Source: a virus. From it: a stretch of DNA of 64,000 bases. Shown here piece by piece: positions 5,936 to 64,000 of the stretch. The stretch is taken from the IMG/VR virus record IMGVR_UViG_3300020419_000005; one strand, given 5' to 3'. A program made the position numbers and the translations under genes. Position 1 is the first letter of the stretch; each line of letters starts with the position of its first letter. The notes below the pieces were generated by a model, which was not told the origin of the DNA, did no database searches, and saw only the letters and a program-made list of their open reading frames with translations.

Positions 5936-6487
5936 TTAACCTCCGACAATTTGTACTTGTTCTACAACTACATCAGCAGAACCTGCTGTTAGTTTAACAG
6001 TTCTTTGCAACATAGGTACTGTGTTAGCAATTACATCAGCATCACTGATTGTGTATGCAGAACCTGCACCTGACGCATCAATATCTGTAGTGATTGTTAT
6101 GTCACCAACTGCTGTAACTTTCTTACCTGCTGATGCAGCAGATTCAAAGTCTGTTCCAAAACCATTTGTGTCACCACCATCTATAGTCTGAACAAAATCT
6201 CCTACAGCAAAACTGTGACGACCACCTGCTCCTGTACCGTGTCCACCACCTGCAACAGTAAATACTGCACCATTGGCATTAGTTCCACCAGTAATACTGA
6301 TATTTTTTGATTTACCTACTGAAAGCAAAACTGCTTCCCCTGCTGCAAGTGTAATAGCAGGACCGCTATCAAACTTTATGGTTGATGCAGATGCAGCATA
6401 TGCACGTACAACTCCACTTTTAACGACGATGTAAGCAGTACCTGAACCACTCACTGTCGTAGTATCTAAGACATTTAATACAGACAT
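5936..6487 (-). CDS. Hypothetical protein, likely virion-associated (Gly/Ala/Thr-rich beta protein)
   Basis: 183-aa ORF preceded by GATAAATA at 6516-6523. Confidence 0.7.
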   Translation of the reverse strand: MSVLNVLDTTTVSGSGTAYIVVKSGVVRAYAASASTIKFDSGPAITLAAGEAVLLSVGKSKNISITGGTNANGAVFTVAGGGHGTGAGGRHSFAVGDFVQTIDGGDTNGFGTDFESAASAGKKVTAVGDITITTDIDASGAGSAYTISDADVIANTVPMLQRTVKLTAGSADVVVEQVQIVGG

Positions 6488-36000: not shown

Positions 36001-39000
36001 AACAGCAGTTGTAGCGATAAATCTTATATTATTTTCAATTTCATTTGCAGCATCATAGTAACCATTAGTTGTAGCATTATTATAATAATCAGGTCTCTGT
36101 ATTGCTTGTCCTAATCCACCTGTTGCTGTCTCACTCTCGTAGGGAGTAAACCCTAAACGGTTTCTGATGGTTAGGATTGACATATCTCTTGCTAACTTAA
36201 ACGCATAGATTGTCTCTTCAGATTGAGCACTTACGTGAGTTAACGCTAAGTCTGTATTTAAATATAATGCAGCAGCATCATAGGATTCACTGTTACCACC
36301 GAATCTTAAATCGTGTGCTACAGATTCAATAATATCAACAATATCATCTTCACAGTTGACCTTACCACCTGGAACTTTAAACTTCTTAGATTGTGCAAAA
36401 GATGTCTTAGTTAGAATATCAACTGCTTCACCTGCAATAGTCTTAGCATTTTGCTCTAAAAGATTAGCAGCGTCAAGATCTCTGTCAGATCCAGTATATG
36501 CTTTAGGATCTATTGTAATAGTATCGTCACGATAAACAGACTCATCTGTGTATAGCATCTGATAGTAATCAGAGAAATCGGCAGCAACTTGAGCAGGGTT
36601 TTCATTTCTACCAATCAATAAACCTTGTATTGCTTTTTGTGCCAACTTCTTAGCATATTCAATCGCATCAATCATTGCAAGCAATTCATCTTCAATATAG
36701 TTGATGTTAGTCTCATTATCGAGATAACTATCAATCATTGCTTGTGTTTCAAAGTTACCACCAGTGATCAAGTCACCTGCAATAGCAGGAAGTATATGAT
36801 CTCTAATATCTCTTACACATTTTGCTCTATTAGGTATTGTTAGTTTATTTACTGTTGAGAAACCAACTTGTACTTGATATTTGTTTTCAATATAAAATAC
36901 TGACTCATCAGCGATTGCTTTTCTATTAAAGTAAATTAAATCAGCACCATCTCTGAATCTATGACCTGTAGGTCCGATAACATCTAGTAGATCATCTACA
37001 AGAGTCATAATATCAGTTTGTATCTGTGAAGATGCAGGAGATGAGAAGTAATTAGGAACACGAACCTTATATGAATAAGTTCCATCTAATGTTGTTTCAT
37101 CTAATGTAATTACATCGATACAAAGTTTTGCAACTTCTCTCCAAGTATAGATTGACTGTAGTTGCTCACCACCAATATGTTGTAAAGAACCTGATCCTTC
37201 AATATAAGCACGACCAACAATAGTTGTTTGGAAGTTACCACCAGAAATTAAGTCATCAATAATAGCAGGTATGATGTATGCTTTTGTATCTCGTAAACAT
37301 ACATTAGAACCATACATTGATCCACCACCATCACCAGGAATTACAAAGTCTGGGTATCTTGCTCTTAAACGACCAACTGCTTCTTCAGCAATATAATCAA
37401 TATTCTTACGTATAACTTCAGCACATATTCTATATTCTTCACGACTAAGATCAACACCTTCAGTAGTAAGTTCAGAACGCCATAACTCAACTTCATCAGC
37501 AGTAGCAGTAGATATTATATGATCAACGTATGTTGCATATACTGCACTCTGTTCCATAGGGAATGGTGCTTCACCAAGAATTGCGAATGATATGTTTGTA
37601 CTACTTGTGAATACAATAGGGGGAGTAAAACTACTATTGTACTGGGAAATTCCTTTGCGAATAATAAGGTTATCAATCCAACCATTGAAAGGATTAGCAT
37701 TGTTCCATCCTGCACCAATAGTGATCTTACTATTTGCATTATAATTGTTTGTGTCAGTGTATGTACCCATCTGCTGACCATTTACAAACAGTTTAGTTAC
37801 ACTTGTAGAACGAGATACTGCAATATGATACCAGTTATTAATTGTAGTAATAGCAGAACTAACAGTAATTACATCACTTGCACCTATAGATAAACGAAGT
37901 GACTGACCAGACATTAATATGCCTAACTTAGTATCGGAAGATGACTCTCTAAGATCAATAAGTCTCTGTGTACCAGTAACAGAAGCAGGACGTATCCATA
38001 ACTCCATTGTATAATCACCAGTAGCAGCATCTGCTCCATCACCAAATAATACAGCGTCACTTGATGGGAAAGTAGCATAAGAACTTGTACCACTGAACTT
38101 CAATGAACCAGAATCAGTTTTAAATGTTAATTTATCTTGAGTTACATTCTGATATGTTAATTTAGAGTTGGTTATATACTCACCCTTTTGTAATACACCA
38201 CTAATCTGTTTAGAGAAGATCCATTTGTTACCTGCATTAGATCCAATAACATCATATGTTGCACCCGATGTAATTGCTTTTACAGTATCACCAAATACGA
38301 AGAATCCACCAGATGATTTATCTTGATAAGCGTGTTTAGCACAACGTAAAGTTTCTCCATCTACAAAAGCATAAGGAGGAAGAACACGAGGTACATTAGT
38401 AATAGACCACTGATATGTTGCAGGAGTGCCACCTGTAGGGTCCTCTAGAGTATCTGTAATGATTCTCATATAGGATGTTATAGCATTTGCCTGATTAACA
38501 CAACTATTAGTATATCCTGCTAATGCAGCAGAAGGTGCAGTCTCAGTTACTGCTGCTTGGAATGCTGCTACTGTTCCTGGAGATGCAGTTGATCCAAGAT
38601 TAGTAATCAGAATATTCATTAACGTGATAATTGCTGATTCTACAGTTGTTTCATCAGCGAGTTCTGTGCCAGTTACCTGATTCCAATTATGAGATCCTGC
38701 TTTAGTCCAAGAATCATTTTTCATTACTACAATAGCAATCTCTCTTGCCTTAGTAAAAGCATTTACAATGGTATCTCTATCACCAGATGTTACACCATAC
38801 TGTAGAGTTTTCTTAGTTGCTTTATATACAAAGTTATTACCACCGTGTGCCAAGTTATAAACCATTGCTTCAAGAACATCAACAATATCAGATAAGCAAT
38901 GAACATCTCCACCCGATACGTTATATCCTGGATTTTGTGTCTTAGCATAATGTAATGCTTCATATGCAATAAACCATTTGTTATTAAGAATTAGATCTCT

Positions 39001-58995: not shown

Positions 58996-59160
58996 CTAAT
59001 GGTTACATTCGTAGTTCTCGTTGTATCTCTTCACGCTAGGAGTTATTTTATCCAATAAATCCTCAACATCTTCATATGTCTCAGTTTGATAAGTCTGCAA
59101 TGACTTCTGATACAATTCTAAGGCATTGTAGATCAATGACATCTCTCTTCTGTTAAACAT
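58996..59160 (-). CDS. Small helical hypothetical protein (54 aa, not in ORF track)
   Basis: MFNRREMSLIYNALELYQKSLQTYQTETYEDVEDLLDKI...; overlaps the upstream stop. Confidence 0.65.
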   Translation of the reverse strand: MFNRREMSLIYNALELYQKSLQTYQTETYEDVEDLLDKITPSVKRYNENYECNH

Positions 59161-59314
59161 CTGCTTTGGTGATGATTAGTTTGTCGTCTATAATATCATA
59201 TTGTATCACATCTCCTACTCCCCACGCAAGTTCTTCAACTATCTGATCAGGTAATTTAAAAGTCATTTCACCGTAATCATCCTCCTCTATGGGAACTAGA
59301 AATCGTTTACTCAT
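59153..59314 (-). CDS. AbrB/MazE/SpoVT-like small DNA-binding protein (53 aa, not in ORF track)
   Basis: MSKRFLVPIEEDDYGEMTFKLPDQIVEELAWGVGDVIQYDIIDDKLIITK: G....LP..I...L.W..GD.I......L.I.K swapped-hairpin pattern. Confidence 0.7.
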   Translation of the reverse strand: MSKRFLVPIEEDDYGEMTFKLPDQIVEELAWGVGDVIQYDIIDDKLIITKADV

Positions 59315-59753
59315 TCTTTCGTAAAATATAGCGTATCATTGGTATATAGGATTCTAGGTATTCTATGTTACTAACGTAAGAATACTTGTGTTGAAGTATT
59401 AACCCATCACCCAAATACACCCCTGCGTGTTTAATAAGACTATTGGATAAACCATCAGCAATACCGAATGAGAAGCACACCACATCATTCTTTTTTAAGA
59501 TACTCTTATACCAATCTATACCATCCCATTCTCCTTCATCCTTCTTGAATATAACTCCCCAACCCTCTGCTTCTATATCTTCTATCTTATATTCCCTTAC
59601 AAACATACTGTAATCCTTAGAGAAGGTCTGAATACCAGTATCTTTCATATAATCATAGATCAGTGTGAAACATCCTCCACCTCTCTGCTGTTTCCAAGGG
59701 CGACCTAACCAGGGGGAGTAATCATTCTCGTACTTTTTTATCAAATTGTCCAT
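59307..59753 (-). CDS. NlpC/P60-family (C40-like) protein
   Basis: WLGRPW....GGCFTLIYDY (catalytic Cys), DVVCF, and HAGVYLGDGLILQH (two His). Confidence 0.8.
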   Translation of the reverse strand: MDNLIKKYENDYSPWLGRPWKQQRGGGCFTLIYDYMKDTGIQTFSKDYSMFVREYKIEDIEAEGWGVIFKKDEGEWDGIDWYKSILKKNDVVCFSFGIADGLSNSLIKHAGVYLGDGLILQHKYSYVSNIEYLESYIPMIRYILRKNE

Positions 59754-59895
59754 AGGTAAAATTTTTTCTGGGGATTTTTTTATATATCAGGGTACCTTAA
59801 ATGCGTTTTCGATAATATAGCAAACCCTATACTTTTGTAGGTTAGTCAAAAAAGATTTTTTTAATATGCCACTTTTCCGATTGGCACAAGGCGAA

Positions 59896-59914
59896 AATGA
59901 TAATCGTTTTCATT
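59896..59914. promoter_or_regulatory. Fur-box-like inverted repeat
   Basis: AATGATAATCGTTTTCATT, 17/19 identical to AATGATAATCATTATCATT; intergenic. Confidence 0.45.
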
Positions 59915-59936
59915 CTCACCTGTGTCACCTCTGAGA

Positions 59937-60146
59937 CTACCAGAGATACGTAACTTTTTTATTCTCAGGGAATTGTATTTTATCCCCAACTAAAATTGCG
60001 TCATACTTAGTTAATAGATGGAATGTTTGCTTCATAAAATTTAAAGCACCCTCTAGAGATAAATCGCTGATTAACTCAGCATCAAATCTTTTCTTATAGT
60101 AAGTTGTAGTTTGGAATTGCTTGAAAGTTATTTGATTAAGTTCCAT
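59937..60146 (-). CDS. Early hypothetical protein
   Basis: 69-aa ORF downstream of an early promoter cassette. Confidence 0.7.
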   Translation of the reverse strand: MELNQITFKQFQTTTYYKKRFDAELISDLSLEGALNFMKQTFHLLTKYDAILVGDKIQFPENKKVTYLW

Positions 60147-60156
60147 AGTGGGTTGC

Positions 60157-60203
60157 TTAGTGTTGTTATATTAATTATAGCGAATTATTCCCCCCTATGC
60201 GAA
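60157..60203 (-). promoter_or_regulatory. Early sigma70-like promoter cassette
   Basis: TTCGCA-18 nt-TATAAT followed by an AACAACACTAA leader. Confidence 0.7.
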
Positions 60204-60376
60204 CTAATTAGAATATATGTTAAATTGCTGTTATTATGACAATCACGTTACATAACTCTTGAAAAAAACCGCCTTGCGTGCTAACTTCCTAAGACTACAA
60301 TAACCTAAGATATTAATAGAGATATAAAATTGAAAAGTATATTTATTTTAACCTTTTTAATTTATACTAAATCTAT

Positions 60377-60739
60377 TCATTTATACCGTAAGTTTTTAAA
60401 ATGATCGTTTACTTTGTTCCCATCTATATGTCTCACTTGCCTATGATCTATATTAGTTATTTGTTCTTCTTCTATTGTTTCCGCACTTATAAAAGCACTT
60501 GCTACAAGTCTGGCAATTCTTCTTACAACTGTTTTCCCTTCTTTTCTGAGAGTTACTCTCTTGTAACCGTTTTCATTAATATGAGTCTGTAATTGTTTCC
60601 ACTTTCCCCACTTAGTAGAGAATACTTCTCCATTCTCTTTTATGTAATAATCTTCATACTGTGGTAGTGCCTTATACAACTTTCCGCTATCATCAACAAA
60701 AGTTTCCGCATCAACTTTTTTAAACGTGTAAATAGTCAT
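60377..60739 (-). CDS. NUMOD4-HNH protein, truncated or degenerate
   Basis: Y.I...G.V.S...K.L....N.NGY.RV.L (NUMOD4), ARLVA.AF, and VRHIDGNK.ND...NLRY followed by a stop. Confidence 0.75.
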   Translation of the reverse strand: MTIYTFKKVDAETFVDDSGKLYKALPQYEDYYIKENGEVFSTKWGKWKQLQTHINENGYKRVTLRKEGKTVVRRIARLVASAFISAETIEEEQITNIDHRQVRHIDGNKVNDHFKNLRYK

Positions 60740-60755
60740 TATTTTAAAGGATAAT

Positions 60756-60783
60756 AAAAAAAGGACTTTGTTAGAGTCCTTTT
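60756..60783 (-). terminator. Rho-independent terminator (could act in both directions)
   Basis: AAAAGGACT-ttgttag-AGTCCTTTT with A/T tails on both sides, downstream of the ArdA-like gene. Confidence 0.8.
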
Positions 60784-60814
60784 ATATAGGTATTTAATTA
60801 AAACCCTTTTATGC

Positions 60815-61354
60815 TTAGAAATTGTTGAAAATGTGATTATCCCACTCGCAATAATCATAACTTAGGTTATTATCCCATATTTTGTTATAATCAATAGAGG
60901 ACTCTATCCAAGTTGGTAAGTCTCTTGAAATATAACCACAATCTGAGATTAAGTTTTCTGTGAATTCTGCTCCACTTTCCCACTTTCCCATATATGAGTC
61001 TTCTAAGTGCATCAAGTCAGCAATATCGAAAATTGAAATAAATGCTTCAATAATCTCATCAACTGGCGAATCATAGTAACGTAACTCTTGAGATACGTTT
61101 TCATATGTGTCGATATGCTCGATAGCGTCATCAATATCAAGTTCAAAAGTCTCTTGAAATTCTTGAATTTCGTCAAGTCTCTCTGTACCTTCTTCAAGTG
61201 CTATCTCTGTAACTTTAGAAAATTCTACTCCATAGTCAGTAGAGAATTGTAAACTACGGTCAACAATAGCACTAAGTTCAGTAATTCTTGACTTTCTTAA
61301 GTCTGCATTAATCTGATCTAGTCTAGATTGCTGAGAGTTAGATAAAGTTTGCAT
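60815..61354 (-). CDS. ArdA-like antirestriction (DNA-mimic) protein
   Basis: Very acidic; C-terminal Y.G.W.S..EF...L...G....LP......IDY......L..DY.......F matches the ArdA pattern; has its own strong early promoter. Confidence 0.7.
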   Translation of the reverse strand: MQTLSNSQQSRLDQINADLRKSRITELSAIVDRSLQFSTDYGVEFSKVTEIALEEGTERLDEIQEFQETFELDIDDAIEHIDTYENVSQELRYYDSPVDEIIEAFISIFDIADLMHLEDSYMGKWESGAEFTENLISDCGYISRDLPTWIESSIDYNKIWDNNLSYDYCEWDNHIFNNF

Positions 61355-61361
61355 TTGGGAT

Positions 61362-61422
61362 TTAAGTGTTGTTATATTAATGATAACATAAATTTTTGAT
61401 TTATGTCAAGAAAAAAGAGAAT
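61362..61422 (-). promoter_or_regulatory. Early promoter cassette with spacer palindrome
   Basis: TTGACA (61404-61409), 18-nt spacer ending in TGn, TATCAT; ACATAAAT-n5-ATTTATGT inverted repeat; AACACTTAA leader. Confidence 0.85.
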
Positions 61423-61423
61423 T

Positions 61424-61705
61424 TTATACTTTCTTAAGGTTTACATATCCCTCATAATAAGTAATTGCAAGTTCTAAAACAATTTCAAAAACCTCTGTTG
61501 AAACATAAATTTCATTATCAAAAACGTAAGAATCTCTTTTCATTAAGACTTCTAAAACGTTATGGGCAATATCTTCTAAATCTTTTTGAGTAAAAACAGT
61601 TGCCTTCCACCCACCAGTATAGTTAAATCTTTTATCAAGTGTTTTAACTAAATCCTCTGTTGTAACTGTGGATAGGTCAAGAGCGAAATTTTTGATTTTT
61701 GACAT
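61424..61705 (-). CDS. Early hypothetical protein
   Basis: Start moved to MSKIKNF (61705) because the longer start lies inside the promoter cassette. Confidence 0.7.
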   Translation of the reverse strand: MSKIKNFALDLSTVTTEDLVKTLDKRFNYTGGWKATVFTQKDLEDIAHNVLEVLMKRDSYVFDNEIYVSTEVFEIVLELAITYYEGYVNLKKV

Positions 61706-61715
61706 TTTGGGAAAA

Positions 61716-61789
61716 AAGTGTTTTGTATATATTAATGATAACATAAATTTTTAGTTTATGTCAAGAAAAAAGAGAATTTAATATTCTCT
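61716..61789 (-). promoter_or_regulatory. Early promoter cassette (near-copy of 61362-61422)
   Basis: About 50 nt nearly identical (tatattaatgataacataaattttt...ttatgtcaagaaaaaagagaattt); upstream AGAGAAT-n5-ATTCTCT inverted repeat. Confidence 0.85.
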
Positions 61790-62037
61790 TAATATTCTCC
61801 CCATATTCTAAGATATGCGTTAATCTCTGCTAATGTGCAAGAATATTTGTACTCAGCAGCATTACCAGTAATAAATCGCCCAAAACTATTAGTTAATGCT
61901 ATCTCAAATAATCCTTCTTTAGTGTATTCTAGGATAGATGCACCAAAGTTATTATTTGGGAAATTTATCTTACTTACTGTTGTATCTGGGATATTTCCCT
62001 TTTCTGTAGCGTAAGGATAGAATTCAAACATAATCAT
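61789..62037 (-). CDS. Early hypothetical protein
   Basis: F.N.FGASI.....GLFEIA motif; has its own promoter cassette. Confidence 0.7.
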   Translation of the reverse strand: MIMFEFYPYATEKGNIPDTTVSKINFPNNNFGASILEYTKEGLFEIALTNSFGRFITGNAAEYKYSCTLAEINAYLRIWGEY

Positions 62038-62110
62038 TAAGTGTTGTTATTACTATGATAACATAAAAATTTGATTATGTGAGACTTTTTTTAAAATGAA
62101 TTGTTAAGAA
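62037..62110 (-). promoter_or_regulatory. Early promoter cassette
   Basis: TGtTATCAT extended -10, ACATAA-n8-TTATGT inverted repeat, AACACTTAA leader. Confidence 0.7.
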
Positions 62111-62122
62111 ATTATAAAGCAT

Positions 62123-62155
62123 AAAAAAAGGTTAGAGTTCCCACGCTCTAACCTT
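62123..62155 (-). terminator. Rho-independent terminator
   Basis: AAGGTTAGAG-cgtgggaa-CTCTAACCTT followed by a T run (7 T in total). Confidence 0.85.
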
Positions 62156-62272
62156 CTTTAATTGAATATGTTAAGATATATTACAATCAGTTGCAATATT
62201 AACCCTAGTGTGAGTTAGGATTAATAACTGGACTTACATCAAGGGAACACTAAACCCTTAAATGCCAGTAAC
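62123..62272 (-). ncRNA. Candidate structured small RNA / 3' UTR RNA (three hairpins plus terminator)
   Basis: ORF-free 150 nt folding into ACTGG-CATTTAAGGG(loop UUUAGUGUU)CCCTTGATG-TAAGT-CCAGT, TATTAATCCTA(ACTCACAC)TAGGGTTAATA, TATTGCAA(CTGA)TTGTAATA and a terminator. The wobble positions are G-U pairs only on the minus strand. Confidence 0.55.
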
Positions 62273-62274
62273 GT

Positions 62275-62706
62275 TTAACCTAGTGGGTAGTATCCGTTAG
62301 TGTTGAAATAGTCTATATCTGAAATAGTTAAATGCTTTTCAAATACTTTCATACCTTCATAAAATTGAATCTCAGCACCAGTTAATGTGTCTACTAAAAT
62401 CCATTGCTTTTTATGTTGCTTTATATAAACTCTATCCTTAGTTAGTTCACTAAGAATTGCGTTTAATCTCTCTTTAGTTGTTTTGGTTCTAAAACCGCCA
62501 TTATACAATTTAACTGACCTGTAACCAAAGTGTGTGTGGTCAATTTCTGCTATAACAGTATCGTAAAATTTTACGTCAACAATGTTAGAACCGTCTTGTC
62601 TAGTAATAACTTCAGTATTACCTAGTCCAGTTCCCTTAGTGTTGCACTTCATCATAGCGAAAATTGCTGATGTTGTACTGGGTTTTGAAAAAGTCAAGTT
62701 GGTCAT
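62275..62706 (-). CDS. Early hypothetical protein of a conserved phage family
   Basis: NT.V......V.....IA.......LYNGG..T.TTK.RLNAIL motif. Confidence 0.75.
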   Translation of the reverse strand: MTNLTFSKPSTTSAIFAMMKCNTKGTGLGNTEVITRQDGSNIVDVKFYDTVIAEIDHTHFGYRSVKLYNGGFRTKTTKERLNAILSELTKDRVYIKQHKKQWILVDTLTGAEIQFYEGMKVFEKHLTISDIDYFNTNGYYPLG

Positions 62707-62770
62707 AGTGTTTTTTGCTTATGAGTCTATTCTAGCAAAGAATAGTGGTATATGTGGATTGAATTGTTAA
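62707..62770 (-). promoter_or_regulatory. Early promoter cassette (extended -10)
   Basis: TGcTAGAAT (-10 at 62729-62734), AAAAACACT leader abutting the ATG, weak -35. Confidence 0.6.
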
Positions 62771-62777
62771 GAGAATC

Positions 62778-62909
62778 TTAAGACTTTTTTTTCTTAGCGT
62801 CTCTAACCATTTTATTAAACTTCTTACTTTGTTTTGGACTCATACCGCAAAAATAGTTTAATAAGTTGCCTTCATATTGATCGGCAAGTGCTATAAGGTC
62901 ATTATTCAT
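62778..62909 (-). CDS. Early small protein (43 aa, not in ORF track)
   Basis: MNNDLIALADQYEGNLLNYFCGMSPKQSKKFNKMVRDAKKKKS; TAATG-coupled. Confidence 0.6.
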   Translation of the reverse strand: MNNDLIALADQYEGNLLNYFCGMSPKQSKKFNKMVRDAKKKKS

Positions 62910-63043
62910 TAGTAAGTACCTCTTAATAAGTTCTTACTGTTGTTAAACTGGTCAATAAGTGCTTCAGTTTTAGCGTTTTGTTTCGCTATTTCCTTATCGG
63001 CAAATTTGATAAGTCTGTGAAGCATTTGTAAATCCTTATCCAT
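62909..63043 (-). CDS. Early small protein (44 aa, not in ORF track)
   Basis: MDKDLQMLHRLIKFADKEIAKQNAKTEALIDQFNNSKNLLRGTY, directly behind a promoter cassette. Confidence 0.65.
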   Translation of the reverse strand: MDKDLQMLHRLIKFADKEIAKQNAKTEALIDQFNNSKNLLRGTY

Positions 63044-63053
63044 AATGTTTAAA

Positions 63054-63104
63054 TTAGTGTTGTTTGGATATATCCAATATAAGGGAAAATTAGGATAAAT
63101 GCAA
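63054..63104 (-). promoter_or_regulatory. Early promoter cassette
   Basis: TTGCAT-17 nt-TATATT; perfect palindrome TTGGATATATCCAA (63064-63077) over the start site; AACAACACTAA leader. Confidence 0.7.
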
Positions 63105-63119
63105 TAGGAAAACAGATTC

Positions 63120-63362
63120 TTAACATTTTTTTAACAATTCATCTTTTCCTCTTTGAATATATCCCTTTTTATATGATTCAACTGAAATTTCGCTTATATT
63201 CTCTATTTCTTCTTCAGTTAAACCTGATTCTTCAAAAATTAGTGCATTATCACTAAATTTTGTTAGAGTTTCAATTACTTCTTCAAAAGAAAAATCTCTA
63301 TTGATAGCATTTTCGCCAAATGCAATTTCAAAAACTTCTTCAATAAATTCATTTTGTGTCAT
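63120..63362 (-). CDS. Early acidic hypothetical protein
   Basis: 80-aa Glu-rich ORF (FIEEVFEIAFG.NAINRDFS.EEVI). Confidence 0.75.
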   Translation of the reverse strand: MTQNEFIEEVFEIAFGENAINRDFSFEEVIETLTKFSDNALIFEESGLTEEEIENISEISVESYKKGYIQRGKDELLKKC

Positions 63363-63496
63363 TTGATTAAATCCTTATGTAATTTGATTAAAATTGATGA
63401 ATTAACATCTATAATTTCAGTTTTCTTATCATCATTTTCAGAATAATGAAAGTTTAAACACTCTATCATATAGAGTAACTCTTTTTGTGTAAACAT
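63359..63496 (-). CDS. Early small protein (45 aa, not in ORF track)
   Basis: MFTQKELLYMIECLNFHYSENDDKKTEIIDVNSSILIKLHKDLIK; coupled on both sides. Confidence 0.6.
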   Translation of the reverse strand: MFTQKELLYMIECLNFHYSENDDKKTEIIDVNSSILIKLHKDLIK

Positions 63497-63696
63497 TATA
63501 CAATTCCCTCTTCAACTAATCCCATTATGTTGCCTGTTTCATCAACTATTTCCCCAGTTTCGTTGTCCCTGACACAACTGTATTCATAATCACAACCAAA
63601 TTCAAAGGATAAATCCATTGCTTTTTGTAAATCGTCAGTAAATACCTCTGAATTGAATAATCTGGGTGTTTCAACTGTGTATTTGAAATTGTCCAT
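63496..63696 (-). CDS. Early acidic hypothetical protein
   Basis: 66 aa with a VRDNETGEIV motif; first gene after a promoter cassette. Confidence 0.75.
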   Translation of the reverse strand: MDNFKYTVETPRLFNSEVFTDDLQKAMDLSFEFGCDYEYSCVRDNETGEIVDETGNIMGLVEEGIV

Positions 63697-63701
63697 TTGT
63701 T

Positions 63702-63755
63702 TTTAGTGTTTGTATGTTATGATTTATTATTGCATATAATTCTGTTATATGTCAA
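63702..63755 (-). promoter_or_regulatory. Early promoter cassette with spacer palindrome
   Basis: TTGACA (63750-63755), 18-nt spacer ending in TGn, AATAAT; CATATAA-n5-TTATATG inverted repeat; AACACTAAA leader. Confidence 0.8.
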
Positions 63756-63776
63756 TAAGGAAATATAAAGAGAATA

Positions 63777-64000
63777 TTAAGATAATATTCCCATTTTTGT
63801 TGCTGTTTGTTTAGTTGCTCTACGCTCTATAACAAAATCCCTTACTCTCTCTCTATCAAGAGAATCCCCACCGCCCCAAGTAACGTGAGTTCCAACTTCG
63901 CATAAATCAAGATAGTTTAAAGTTGCAAGTGCTAACTCTTCCCTAGTTAAACCGTCTATAGGGTAAAGTACATCAGGGTGACTAGGTGAATAGAATGATT
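63777..64000 (-). CDS. Early hypothetical protein, C-terminal part
   Basis: Open frame ...SFYSPSHPDVLYPIDGLTREEL...WGGGDSLDRERVRDFVIE...; the start lies beyond the window. Confidence 0.7.
   Translation of the reverse strand, partial: SFYSPSHPDVLYPIDGLTREELALATLNYLDLCEVGTHVTWGGGDSLDRERVRDFVIERRATKQTATKMGILS

Follow-up and report, generated by a model that had tools for sequence, protein, structure and literature searches.

The switch from early to middle gene expression in T4-type phages relies on the proteins RegA, RegB and AsiA/MotA, and we know of no trans-acting sRNA that has been described for phages of this type. An RNA that invites comparison is the c4 antisense RNA of phages P1 and P7, reportedly described by Citron and Schuster in 1990. 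Like c4, the RNA discussed here, which lies in the early region of a 64-kb viral window (the whole stretch of DNA that was analysed), is a small phage RNA with exposed loops complementary to the translation-initiation region of phage genes, and like c4, which acts by occluding ribosome binding, it would be made from the transcription unit of its neighbours. However there is no match in sequence or structure between the two (RF01695, Rfam scans), and whereas c4 controls the single operon icd-ant in a temperate phage, the candidate pairing in the window concerns a tag found on 7-14 early transcripts of a lytic T4-like phage. T4 RegA and RegB shut off many early mRNAs together, after transcription, by way of a short motif in the initiation region or next to it (PMC3014915), as is proposed here. 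They are proteins, while the proposed effector in the window is an RNA loop, and the target of RegB, GGAG, is the Shine-Dalgarno sequence itself (PMC3014915), whereas the leaders in the window carry AACACU instead of a Shine-Dalgarno sequence. Judged by analogy, c4 RNA is the closest known analogue in mechanism and RegA/RegB the closest in logic.

Promoter-early stem-loops (PeSLs; Arbiol et al. 2010, PMC2839356) resemble the locus in that sigma70-type early promoters and stem-loop terminators punctuate hyperplastic regions, and the terminator at 62159-62123 together with the downstream promoter (CTCACA-17-TATCAT with TGn) has the make-up of a PeSL. PeSLs are multi-copy recombination/terminator modules, however, whereas hairpins 1 and 2 of the window RNA, with their invariant loops and covarying stems, form a separate RNA family; because they are single-copy they are not the repeated unit of a PeSL. 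A further comparison is with the host sRNAs Yfr1 and Yfr10, in which a conserved motif rich in C and A, ACUCCUCACAC, is exposed in a loop or between two stem-loops, and which pair with the complementary sRNA Yfr2 (PMC2190773, PMC2518516, PMC6778093). Loop 2 of the window RNA holds CUCACAC, the last 7 nt of this 11-nt motif (PMC2190773, PMC2518516), which as a 7-mer is a lead only. The UCCU that Yfr1 requires for binding its targets is missing from loop 2 (PMC6778093), and 7 of 11 nt with no Rfam match falls short of a Yfr1/Yfr10-type RNA. A distant relative, L005, keeps CUCACACUA 4 nt past the module, unpaired and with a structured part on either side, as Yfr1 shows its motif.

The only entries for cyanophages in a 2025 review of phage sRNAs are Rfam cis-motifs and CfrI. 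An Rfam search was among the checks proposed by an earlier, sequence-only reading of this locus, and it returned no family: Rfam 15 cmscan, whose families include c4 (RF01695), Yfr1 and the cyanophage motifs manA, wcaG, glnA and PhotoRC, gave nothing overlapping 62123-62310 when 59000-64000 of the window was scanned at E up to 10, and no match in the relatives L173, L005, L113 and L002 at E up to 1. A search of the literature on the AACACU tag or the RNA found nothing relevant. By these comparisons of sequence the window RNA belongs to no described RNA family.

Every large ORF in the window is on the minus strand, and among the products are baseplate wedge proteins of the T4 type, a PAAR protein, endonuclease V and a structural protein of 7019 aa. 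The gp6 homologue shares 57% identity with those of the Synechococcus phage S-SZBM1 and the Prochlorococcus phage P-RSM6 and 54% with that of P-TIM40, and on account of this protein set and these identities the window is assigned, from its gene content, to an uncultured T4-like cyanomyovirus (Kyanoviridae). The stretch from 59.8 to 64 kb is its early, hyperplastic region, in which small ORFs each have a sigma70-type promoter, with terminators between them, and the ORF just 5' of the RNA (62275-62706, minus strand) encodes a Kyano_Gp96-family protein. The window contains no tRNA or tmRNA. The 7019-aa protein is encoded by a single ORF (30082-51141, minus strand) downstream of gp6 and is of the giant virion structural protein type of S-SZBM1 and P-TIM40. 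In the early region an ORF at 60377-60739 (minus strand) has a NUMOD4 motif (E = 8e-4, below the Pfam cut-off) and is possibly a homing-endonuclease remnant; it adjoins an ArdA-like ORF at 60815-61354 (minus strand; 23.7 bits, cut-off 27). The tiny early ORFs at 62811-62909 and 63240-63381 have 74-86% DNA identity over ~100 bp to distant cyanophages (S-SSM7/S-SSM6a, NATL1A-7, P-RSM1 and MbCM1), which suggests module exchange between cyanophage lineages.

Fold, strand and conservation of the RNA

The conserved non-coding RNA occupies 62123-62306 on the minus strand. The sequence-only reading had described the tract after the 62275 stop as free of ORFs and as folding on the minus strand into three hairpins and a terminator, with G-U pairs that mark the strand. 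Neither strand has an ORF of 30 aa or more that overlaps 62123-62272, and the tract is considered non-coding because indels of 1-2 nt distinguish the relatives there. For the minus strand the folding energy is -43.8 kcal/mol (z = -3.9 against 200 shuffles), but the plus strand is nearly as stable (z = -3.8), so that energy alone cannot choose between them; the strand is set by an invariant U.G pair in hairpin 2, which works on the minus strand only, and by a U.G pair in hairpin 1 of the window, as had been claimed.

Hairpin 1 (62227..62269, minus strand, as are all parts of the RNA) was delimited by predicted fold and covariation. It consists of a basal helix, P1 (62269-62264 with 62233-62227), an internal loop in which AU is opposite UGUAA (62238-62234) and a U is bulged, an upper helix, P1b (62261-62255 with 62245-62239), and loop 1, UUUAGUGUU (62254-62246), for which the predicted unpaired probability is 0.98. 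Compensatory changes are found in relatives at five of the seven P1b pairs while loop 1 is unchanged. Hairpin 2 (62197..62226) has an 11-bp stem (62226-62216 with 62207-62197), in which one C-G pair shows a compensatory change to A-U among the relatives, and the invariant loop 2, ACUCACAC (62215-62208). The intrinsic terminator (62123..62159), conserved in relatives, has a 14-bp stem (62159-62124), an 8-nt loop and a U-run to 62123. These three elements stand, but the third hairpin of the sequence-only reading finds no support because its stretch (62160..62196) is a spacer that varies in sequence and length and includes a 25-nt insertion in L001/L003. A riboswitch-like antiterminator between P2 and the terminator was rejected on the same variation in spacer length and content, and a stop-codon readthrough or frameshift signal was rejected as the frame beyond the stop ends after 11 codons and shows no conservation.

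The element was recovered, by searches with proteins and with patterns, from four contigs of IMG/VR and eleven from metagenomes, each of which has one copy. All the full copies come from one marine clade, in which the Gp96-like protein is 89-95% identical to that of the window, and the full two-hairpin core is found in this shallow clade only, at 93% mean column identity; the metagenome scan added its 11 copies from the same clade, and scans of IMG/VR for scaffold and P2 patterns returned only the same four contigs. With model R1 no copy was found in P-RSM6, S-SZBM1 or P-TIM40, nor in the searched loci of groups with 65-77% denV identity. Invariant among relatives are both apical loops, the internal loop and the terminator. 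In an alignment of 8 distinct sequences, which was fitted to the model and so leans the counts towards structure, standard pairs fill 99.5% of pair cells and six pairs are changed on both sides, five of them in P1b and one in hairpin 2. The stem covariation that had been asked of related phages is thus present, its score being reached by none of 500 shuffles, and slid controls collapse. RNAalifold gives the same helices but is not an independent check because it was run on the same model-fitted alignment; the raw sequences by themselves also show four different versions of the stem. We are confident that this is a real conserved structured RNA, and one that is apparently undescribed.

The shallow spread of the full-core copies would also suit an ordinary cassette of T4-type hyperplastic regions, that is, a PeSL-like 3' stabiliser, terminator or insulator between early modules whose sequence has been kept by recent recombinational spread and whose match to the leader tag, described below, is coincidental. 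The small genes, each behind a sigma70-type promoter and with terminators between, match PeSL regions (PMC2839356), the 80-86% DNA identity of small ORFs here with other cyanophages points to module exchange, and it is mainly P1b that varies among the copies, the loops not being unique in their conservation. We nevertheless regard a cassette as quite unlikely. The compensatory changes amount to selection on the fold, and the scaffold of hairpin 1 persists in phages with a denV identity of no more than 36-38%. Each genome fragment has a single copy, in contrast to dispersed cassettes, the anti-tag would occur in a conserved loop by chance with a probability of only ~1.5e-3, and termination does not need two extra hairpins 5' of a competent terminator.

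The RNA would be produced early, by forming the 3' end of the mRNA for the Gp96-like protein. Most relatives probably make it from a sigma70-type promoter of its own as well, as a transcript that would end at the intrinsic terminator. A putative promoter of this type lies at 62314..62342 (minus strand) within the 3' end of the Kyano_Gp96-like ORF, with a -35 TTGAAA at 62342-62337, a 17-nt spacer and a -10 at 62319-62314 that reads GATATA in the window, without the final T, and GATATT in all relatives. The arrangement TTGAAA-17-GATATT-9-AACACT is found inside the 3' end of the upstream ORF in 10 of 10 aligned relatives, and the spacing of 9 nt between the -10 and AACACT is that of three other early promoters. 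The last ~60 nt of this ORF are 90-100% invariant, compared with 60-83% for its rest (11 copies). Because all ten relatives keep the promoter in an ORF end that is so unusually conserved, it appears from sequence that the RNA is probably also transcribed alone, as a discrete sRNA of ~185 nt (62306-62123). If it is transcribed independently, its own predicted 5' end therefore bears the leader tag, AACACUAA (62297..62304, minus strand), which is conserved in relatives.

The early leader tag and its complement in loop 1

AACACU is present on seven of the nine promoter-proximal early leaders of the window, all on the minus strand. It is found at 63705..63710, 8 nt before the ATG at 63696; at 63056..63061 (as AACACUAA), 12 nt before the ATG at 63043; at 62707..62712, where it abuts the ATG of the Kyano_Gp96-like ORF; at 62040..62045, on the gene 3' of the RNA and 9 nt after an extended -10, TGTTATCAT; at 61717..61722; at 61365..61370; and at 60159..60164 (as AACACUAAG). 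On the gene strand of the 64 kb AACACT occurs 41 times, or ~6.4e-4 per position, and AGTGTT 14 times, so that ~0.14 copies would be expected in nine 25-nt leaders against the 7 observed (Poisson estimate ~1e-10). The relatives L082 and L092 have 14-16 AACACT sites with an ATG within 16 nt, mostly on promoter-preceded leaders. The tag follows the -10 hexamer by 9-16 nt and precedes the ATG by 0-12 nt, and because both distances vary it keeps no fixed position relative to the transcription start or to the start codon. No Shine-Dalgarno sequence is found in the early leaders, which are short (~15-25 nt) and C/A-rich (window 59800-64000, minus strand; L082 and L092).

P-TIM40, P-RSM6 and the L120 group, none of which has the RNA, have leaders of the AACAC type as well, and for this reason the primary role of the tag is probably in Shine-Dalgarno-independent initiation or in a function of the 5' end. 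Private leader strings are seen elsewhere, namely ACACCUACGGA in P-RSM6, ...ACACAUG in P-TIM40 and AACAACGAAAUU... in the L112 group, and the leaders of L004/L005 are AU-rich. An anti-leader element, the reverse complement of ACACCTACGGA, was sought in P-RSM6 and none was found. The early promoters of P-TIM40 (L101) have a conserved upstream inverted repeat, TTAGTG(T/G)CACA ... CACTACC, around the -35 region, 5' of the starts at 5991, 7400, 10396, 10868 and 11435, and this repeat has TAGTGT/ACACTA in common with the two loops of the window RNA. AACACT/AGTGTT could conceivably be a DNA operator, although the evidence of the covarying stems and of the U.G pairs is for RNA.

Loop 1 is the complement of AACACU, and complements of 6-10 nt lie 0-12 nt 5' of the ATG on the seven tagged leaders of the window. 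The sequence-only reading had noted that loop 1 is the exact complement of a stretch just 5' of the 63696 ATG, and had listed several shorter matches; all of them were found where it had placed them, among them the 9-nt match AACACUAAA / AACACTAAA at 63710-63702, the 8-nt match AACACTAA at 63061-63054 and again at 60164-60157, and AACACTA at 62712-62706. In L092 a perfect complement to the hairpin apex of at least 6 nt is present in 10 of 13 leaders, and of at least 7 nt in 7 of 13. Since the loop is complementary to a tag on nearly all the early messages, the RNA may switch those genes together.

It is suggested here, tentatively and as one possible explanation, that loop 1 acts in trans as an anti-leader regulator of early mRNAs. 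The scaffold of hairpin 1 (P1 and the GGCAU/UGUAAGUCC internal loop) would have been inherited from a wider cyanophage RNA family, and its apex would present the invariant loop 1, which starts with a YUNR-type UUUA. The most likely action of the loop would be to base-pair with the AACACU(AA) tag, which appears to replace the Shine-Dalgarno sequence 0-12 nt 5' of early starts, and the pairing would occlude 30S binding, so that translation of the early genes would be damped or shut off collectively, by an RNA in the way that T4 does it with RegA/RegB. The pairing could instead guard the 5' leader against RNase E; a precedent is the protection of phage mRNA from RNase E by RNA duplexes in Prochlorococcus (Stazic et al. 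2011, as related in PMC6778093).

Loop 1 has what is looked for in the seed of a trans-acting sRNA, being conserved, accessible and complementary to sequence near start codons. Its invariance while most P1b pairs change, its predicted lack of pairing within the hairpin, and the enrichment of the tag on leaders of the window and also of L082 and L092 all favour action in trans, as does the low probability (~1.5e-3, computed post hoc) that one of the two conserved loops should hold the anti-tag by chance. The position of the tag would place the duplex over the 30S binding region of leaders that have no Shine-Dalgarno sequence. A broad match between RNA and leaders is found only when the RNA of the window clade is paired with the leaders of that clade, and the early-type promoter that lies upstream of the RNA in relatives, as it does upstream of the stand-alone members of the family, is likewise in favour.

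Other results weigh against a trans regulator. Loop 1 and the tag are invariant in every clade copy found, and the proposed check for co-variation between loop and leader therefore came out empty. Sister lineages with a homologous scaffold (L112/L113/L115 and L005) have other apices, which do not match their own leaders beyond background, the single 7-nt apex-leader match in L113 (GAUCAAA with UUUGAUC) having a chance probability of ~0.04. The loop-leader duplexes have weak predicted energies, of -5 to -9 kcal/mol in most cases and of -12.5 kcal/mol for the strongest (at 60159..60164); three of the seven fall within the bulk of random coding windows, and only the 6-mer is common to all leaders. 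AACAC-type leaders exist without the RNA, as noted above, and the RNA would be co-expressed with its supposed targets, with about one RNA gene against at least 10 target mRNAs. The lineage moreover already has a protein repressor, as complete relatives encode RegA (PF01818, 156-158 bits). Of the regulatory interpretation offered earlier, the structured minus-strand RNA in the early region, its terminator, its anti-tag loop and its probable existence as an sRNA stand, while the third hairpin does not.

Loop 1 also has partners in cis, its own 5' AACACUAA (8 bp) and loop 2 (4-6 bp), and the complementarity could instead serve the RNA's own fold, although we hold this to be somewhat unlikely. Loop 1 would then form a pseudoknot with the 5' tag, burying the 5' end, and/or kiss loop 2 (UAGUGU with ACACUA, the cis-pairing segment of loop 2 being CACACUA), and the real function would lie elsewhere, for example in CUCACACUA of loop 2 as a seed for a host or phage target, or in the scaffold. 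The 5' tag (62304-62297) is a perfect 8-nt complement of loop 1 (UUAGUGUU), placed 43 nt 5' of the loop at the predicted transcription start, in the most conserved part, and its sole variant, AACAUUAA in L085 (C to U), would still pair through G.U. Clade B RNAs start with AACACUAUCC behind a promoter-like site, TTGAAT-18-TAGAGT, and contain GGUUAGUGU further on, yet most clade B leaders are without the tag, and a cis role is therefore favoured by this clade. Further, CUCACACUA is retained in L005, which has neither tag nor anti-tag loop, and unit 2 of the RNA in L115 has UUAGUGUGAGUG, the antisense of loop 2. However all 8 nt cannot pair sterically in a 9-nt loop, the loop-loop match is only 4 bp unless P2 frays, and the tertiary pairs show no covariation; on read-through mRNA, moreover, the 5' tag is inside a translated ORF. 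Folding in cis also leaves unexplained why the same hexamer is on nearly every early leader, and it is compatible with trans pairing too. Pairing inside the RNA explains the match between loop and tag about as well as trans pairing does.

If loop 1 does act in trans, an RNA that addresses a private leader tag would give abundant ocean viruses a simple means of controlling dozens of tiny early genes in concert, and would help to explain how early leaders without a Shine-Dalgarno sequence are read and silenced in Prochlorococcus and Synechococcus.

The wider hairpin family

The base of hairpin 1 (P1 and the internal-loop scaffold, GGCAU...GUAAGUCC) is common to a wider cyanophage family. This was defined by a P1 that closes an asymmetric internal loop, whose 5' strand has GGC(A/G)U and whose 3' strand has NN(G/A)UAAGUCC, below a variable apical hairpin. 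Model R2 gives the window 66 bits and, among copies outside its training set, L176/L177 45 bits, L178 26, L159/L171 23, and L148 and others 20. P1 pair 8-86 is seen as A-U, U-A and C-G across the family copies, and the apex, which lies between two conserved halves, is hypervariable. A sister clade whose denV identity is 74-77% (L112, L113 and L115) has the GGCAU / NNGUAAGUCC scaffold as tandem units (two each at L115:4290-4420 and L112:4374-4511), and this scaffold is also present in L005.

In many classical cyanomyovirus contigs a stand-alone scaffold hairpin lies behind a consensus TTGACA-17-(C/T)ATAAT promoter, ~2 kb downstream of denV, and takes the form GGGAAACAAAAC...GGC(A/G)U-variable apex-(G/A)UAAGUCC...GUUUUUGUUUCUC. 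The cultured phages S-SSM7 and S-SSM6a carry such a hairpin, unannotated; in S-SSM7 it is at NC_015287.1 ~37,755-37,822, in a locus (~37,720-37,830) that corresponds to L211:2528-2640, and others are at L173:5373-5482 and in L159 and L178. The S-SSM7/S-SSM6a RNA resembles that of the window in its P1, in both strands of the internal loop and in the early sigma70-type promoter upstream, and the ten and eleven nucleotides of the scaffold are identical between the window and L173. It differs in being a single long stand-alone hairpin with other apices, without hairpin 2 and without a separate terminator. Whatever the mechanism, this is an undescribed family of structured RNAs with a cultured representative, S-SSM7 on Synechococcus WH8109, and the question of its function is therefore testable at the bench. 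Directly 3' of the stand-alone hairpin there is a -10 element only 3-6 nt from the next ATG, and so the next gene may be leaderless. The long apex at L178:3676-3730 has 87% identity with the unannotated viral contigs Marine virus AG-345-F15 and AG-345-O18, which come from single cells.

It is the scaffold, not the apex, that is conserved from the window clade to the S-SSM7-type phages, and the RNA might on this account be a protein-binding scaffold or sponge, in which the family-wide P1 and GGCAU / NNGUAAGUCC bind a phage or host protein, RegA being a candidate, and the apex is incidental. P1 covaries across the family (one pair being AU:5, UA:4, CG:1), clade B has tandem units, and RegA is encoded by the complete relatives. 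In addition the 3' strand of the internal loop, UUUUAUGUAAG in L002 and UUGAUGUAAG in the window, resembles the T4 RegA SELEX ligand aaAAUUGUUAUGUAA, which is bound with a Kd of 5 nM (PMC3014915). This resemblance is that of a 6-7-mer found after several comparisons, and is a lead only. The RegA-like motif is in a short internal loop, unlike RegA sites, which are described as unstructured and A/U-rich (PMC3014915), and its AUG is not kept, other lineages having GUGUAAG, ACGUAAG or AUAAGUCC. As a scaffold or sponge would also leave the invariance of loops 1 and 2 unexplained, we find this decidedly improbable. Other readings of the internal loop were rejected: a NUG-UAA start-stop mini-ORF, as L005 has ACG and S-SSM7 has AUA, and box C/D, K-turn and loop-E motifs, whose sequences do not fit in relatives.

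Returning to the regulator proposed above, a broader though unlikely possibility is that T4-like cyanophages have a modular sRNA family in which a constant scaffold carries a swappable apical "address". In the clade of the window the address would be the antisense of a private tag that replaces the Shine-Dalgarno sequence, and one RNA would govern the translation or stability of the whole early set (at least 10 transcripts) as an RNA-only analogue of RegA/RegB, while loop 2 (CUCACACUA, Yfr1-like) may reach the host Yfr1/Yfr2 network.

A search with the pattern GTAAGTCC..CTCACACTA added only the contig of L005, its other matches being chance occurrences in coding DNA. The scan of IMG/VR for the loop-loop pattern was swamped by ~55 near-identical contigs (L007-L078; IMG/VR sample 3300045988 and others), which share an unrelated conserved intergenic region with TTTAGTGTTC and CTCACACTA followed by TGTCAAGAATGACA-type repeats. 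This TTTAGTGTTC/CTCACACTA region is probably part of the regulatory switch of another phage.
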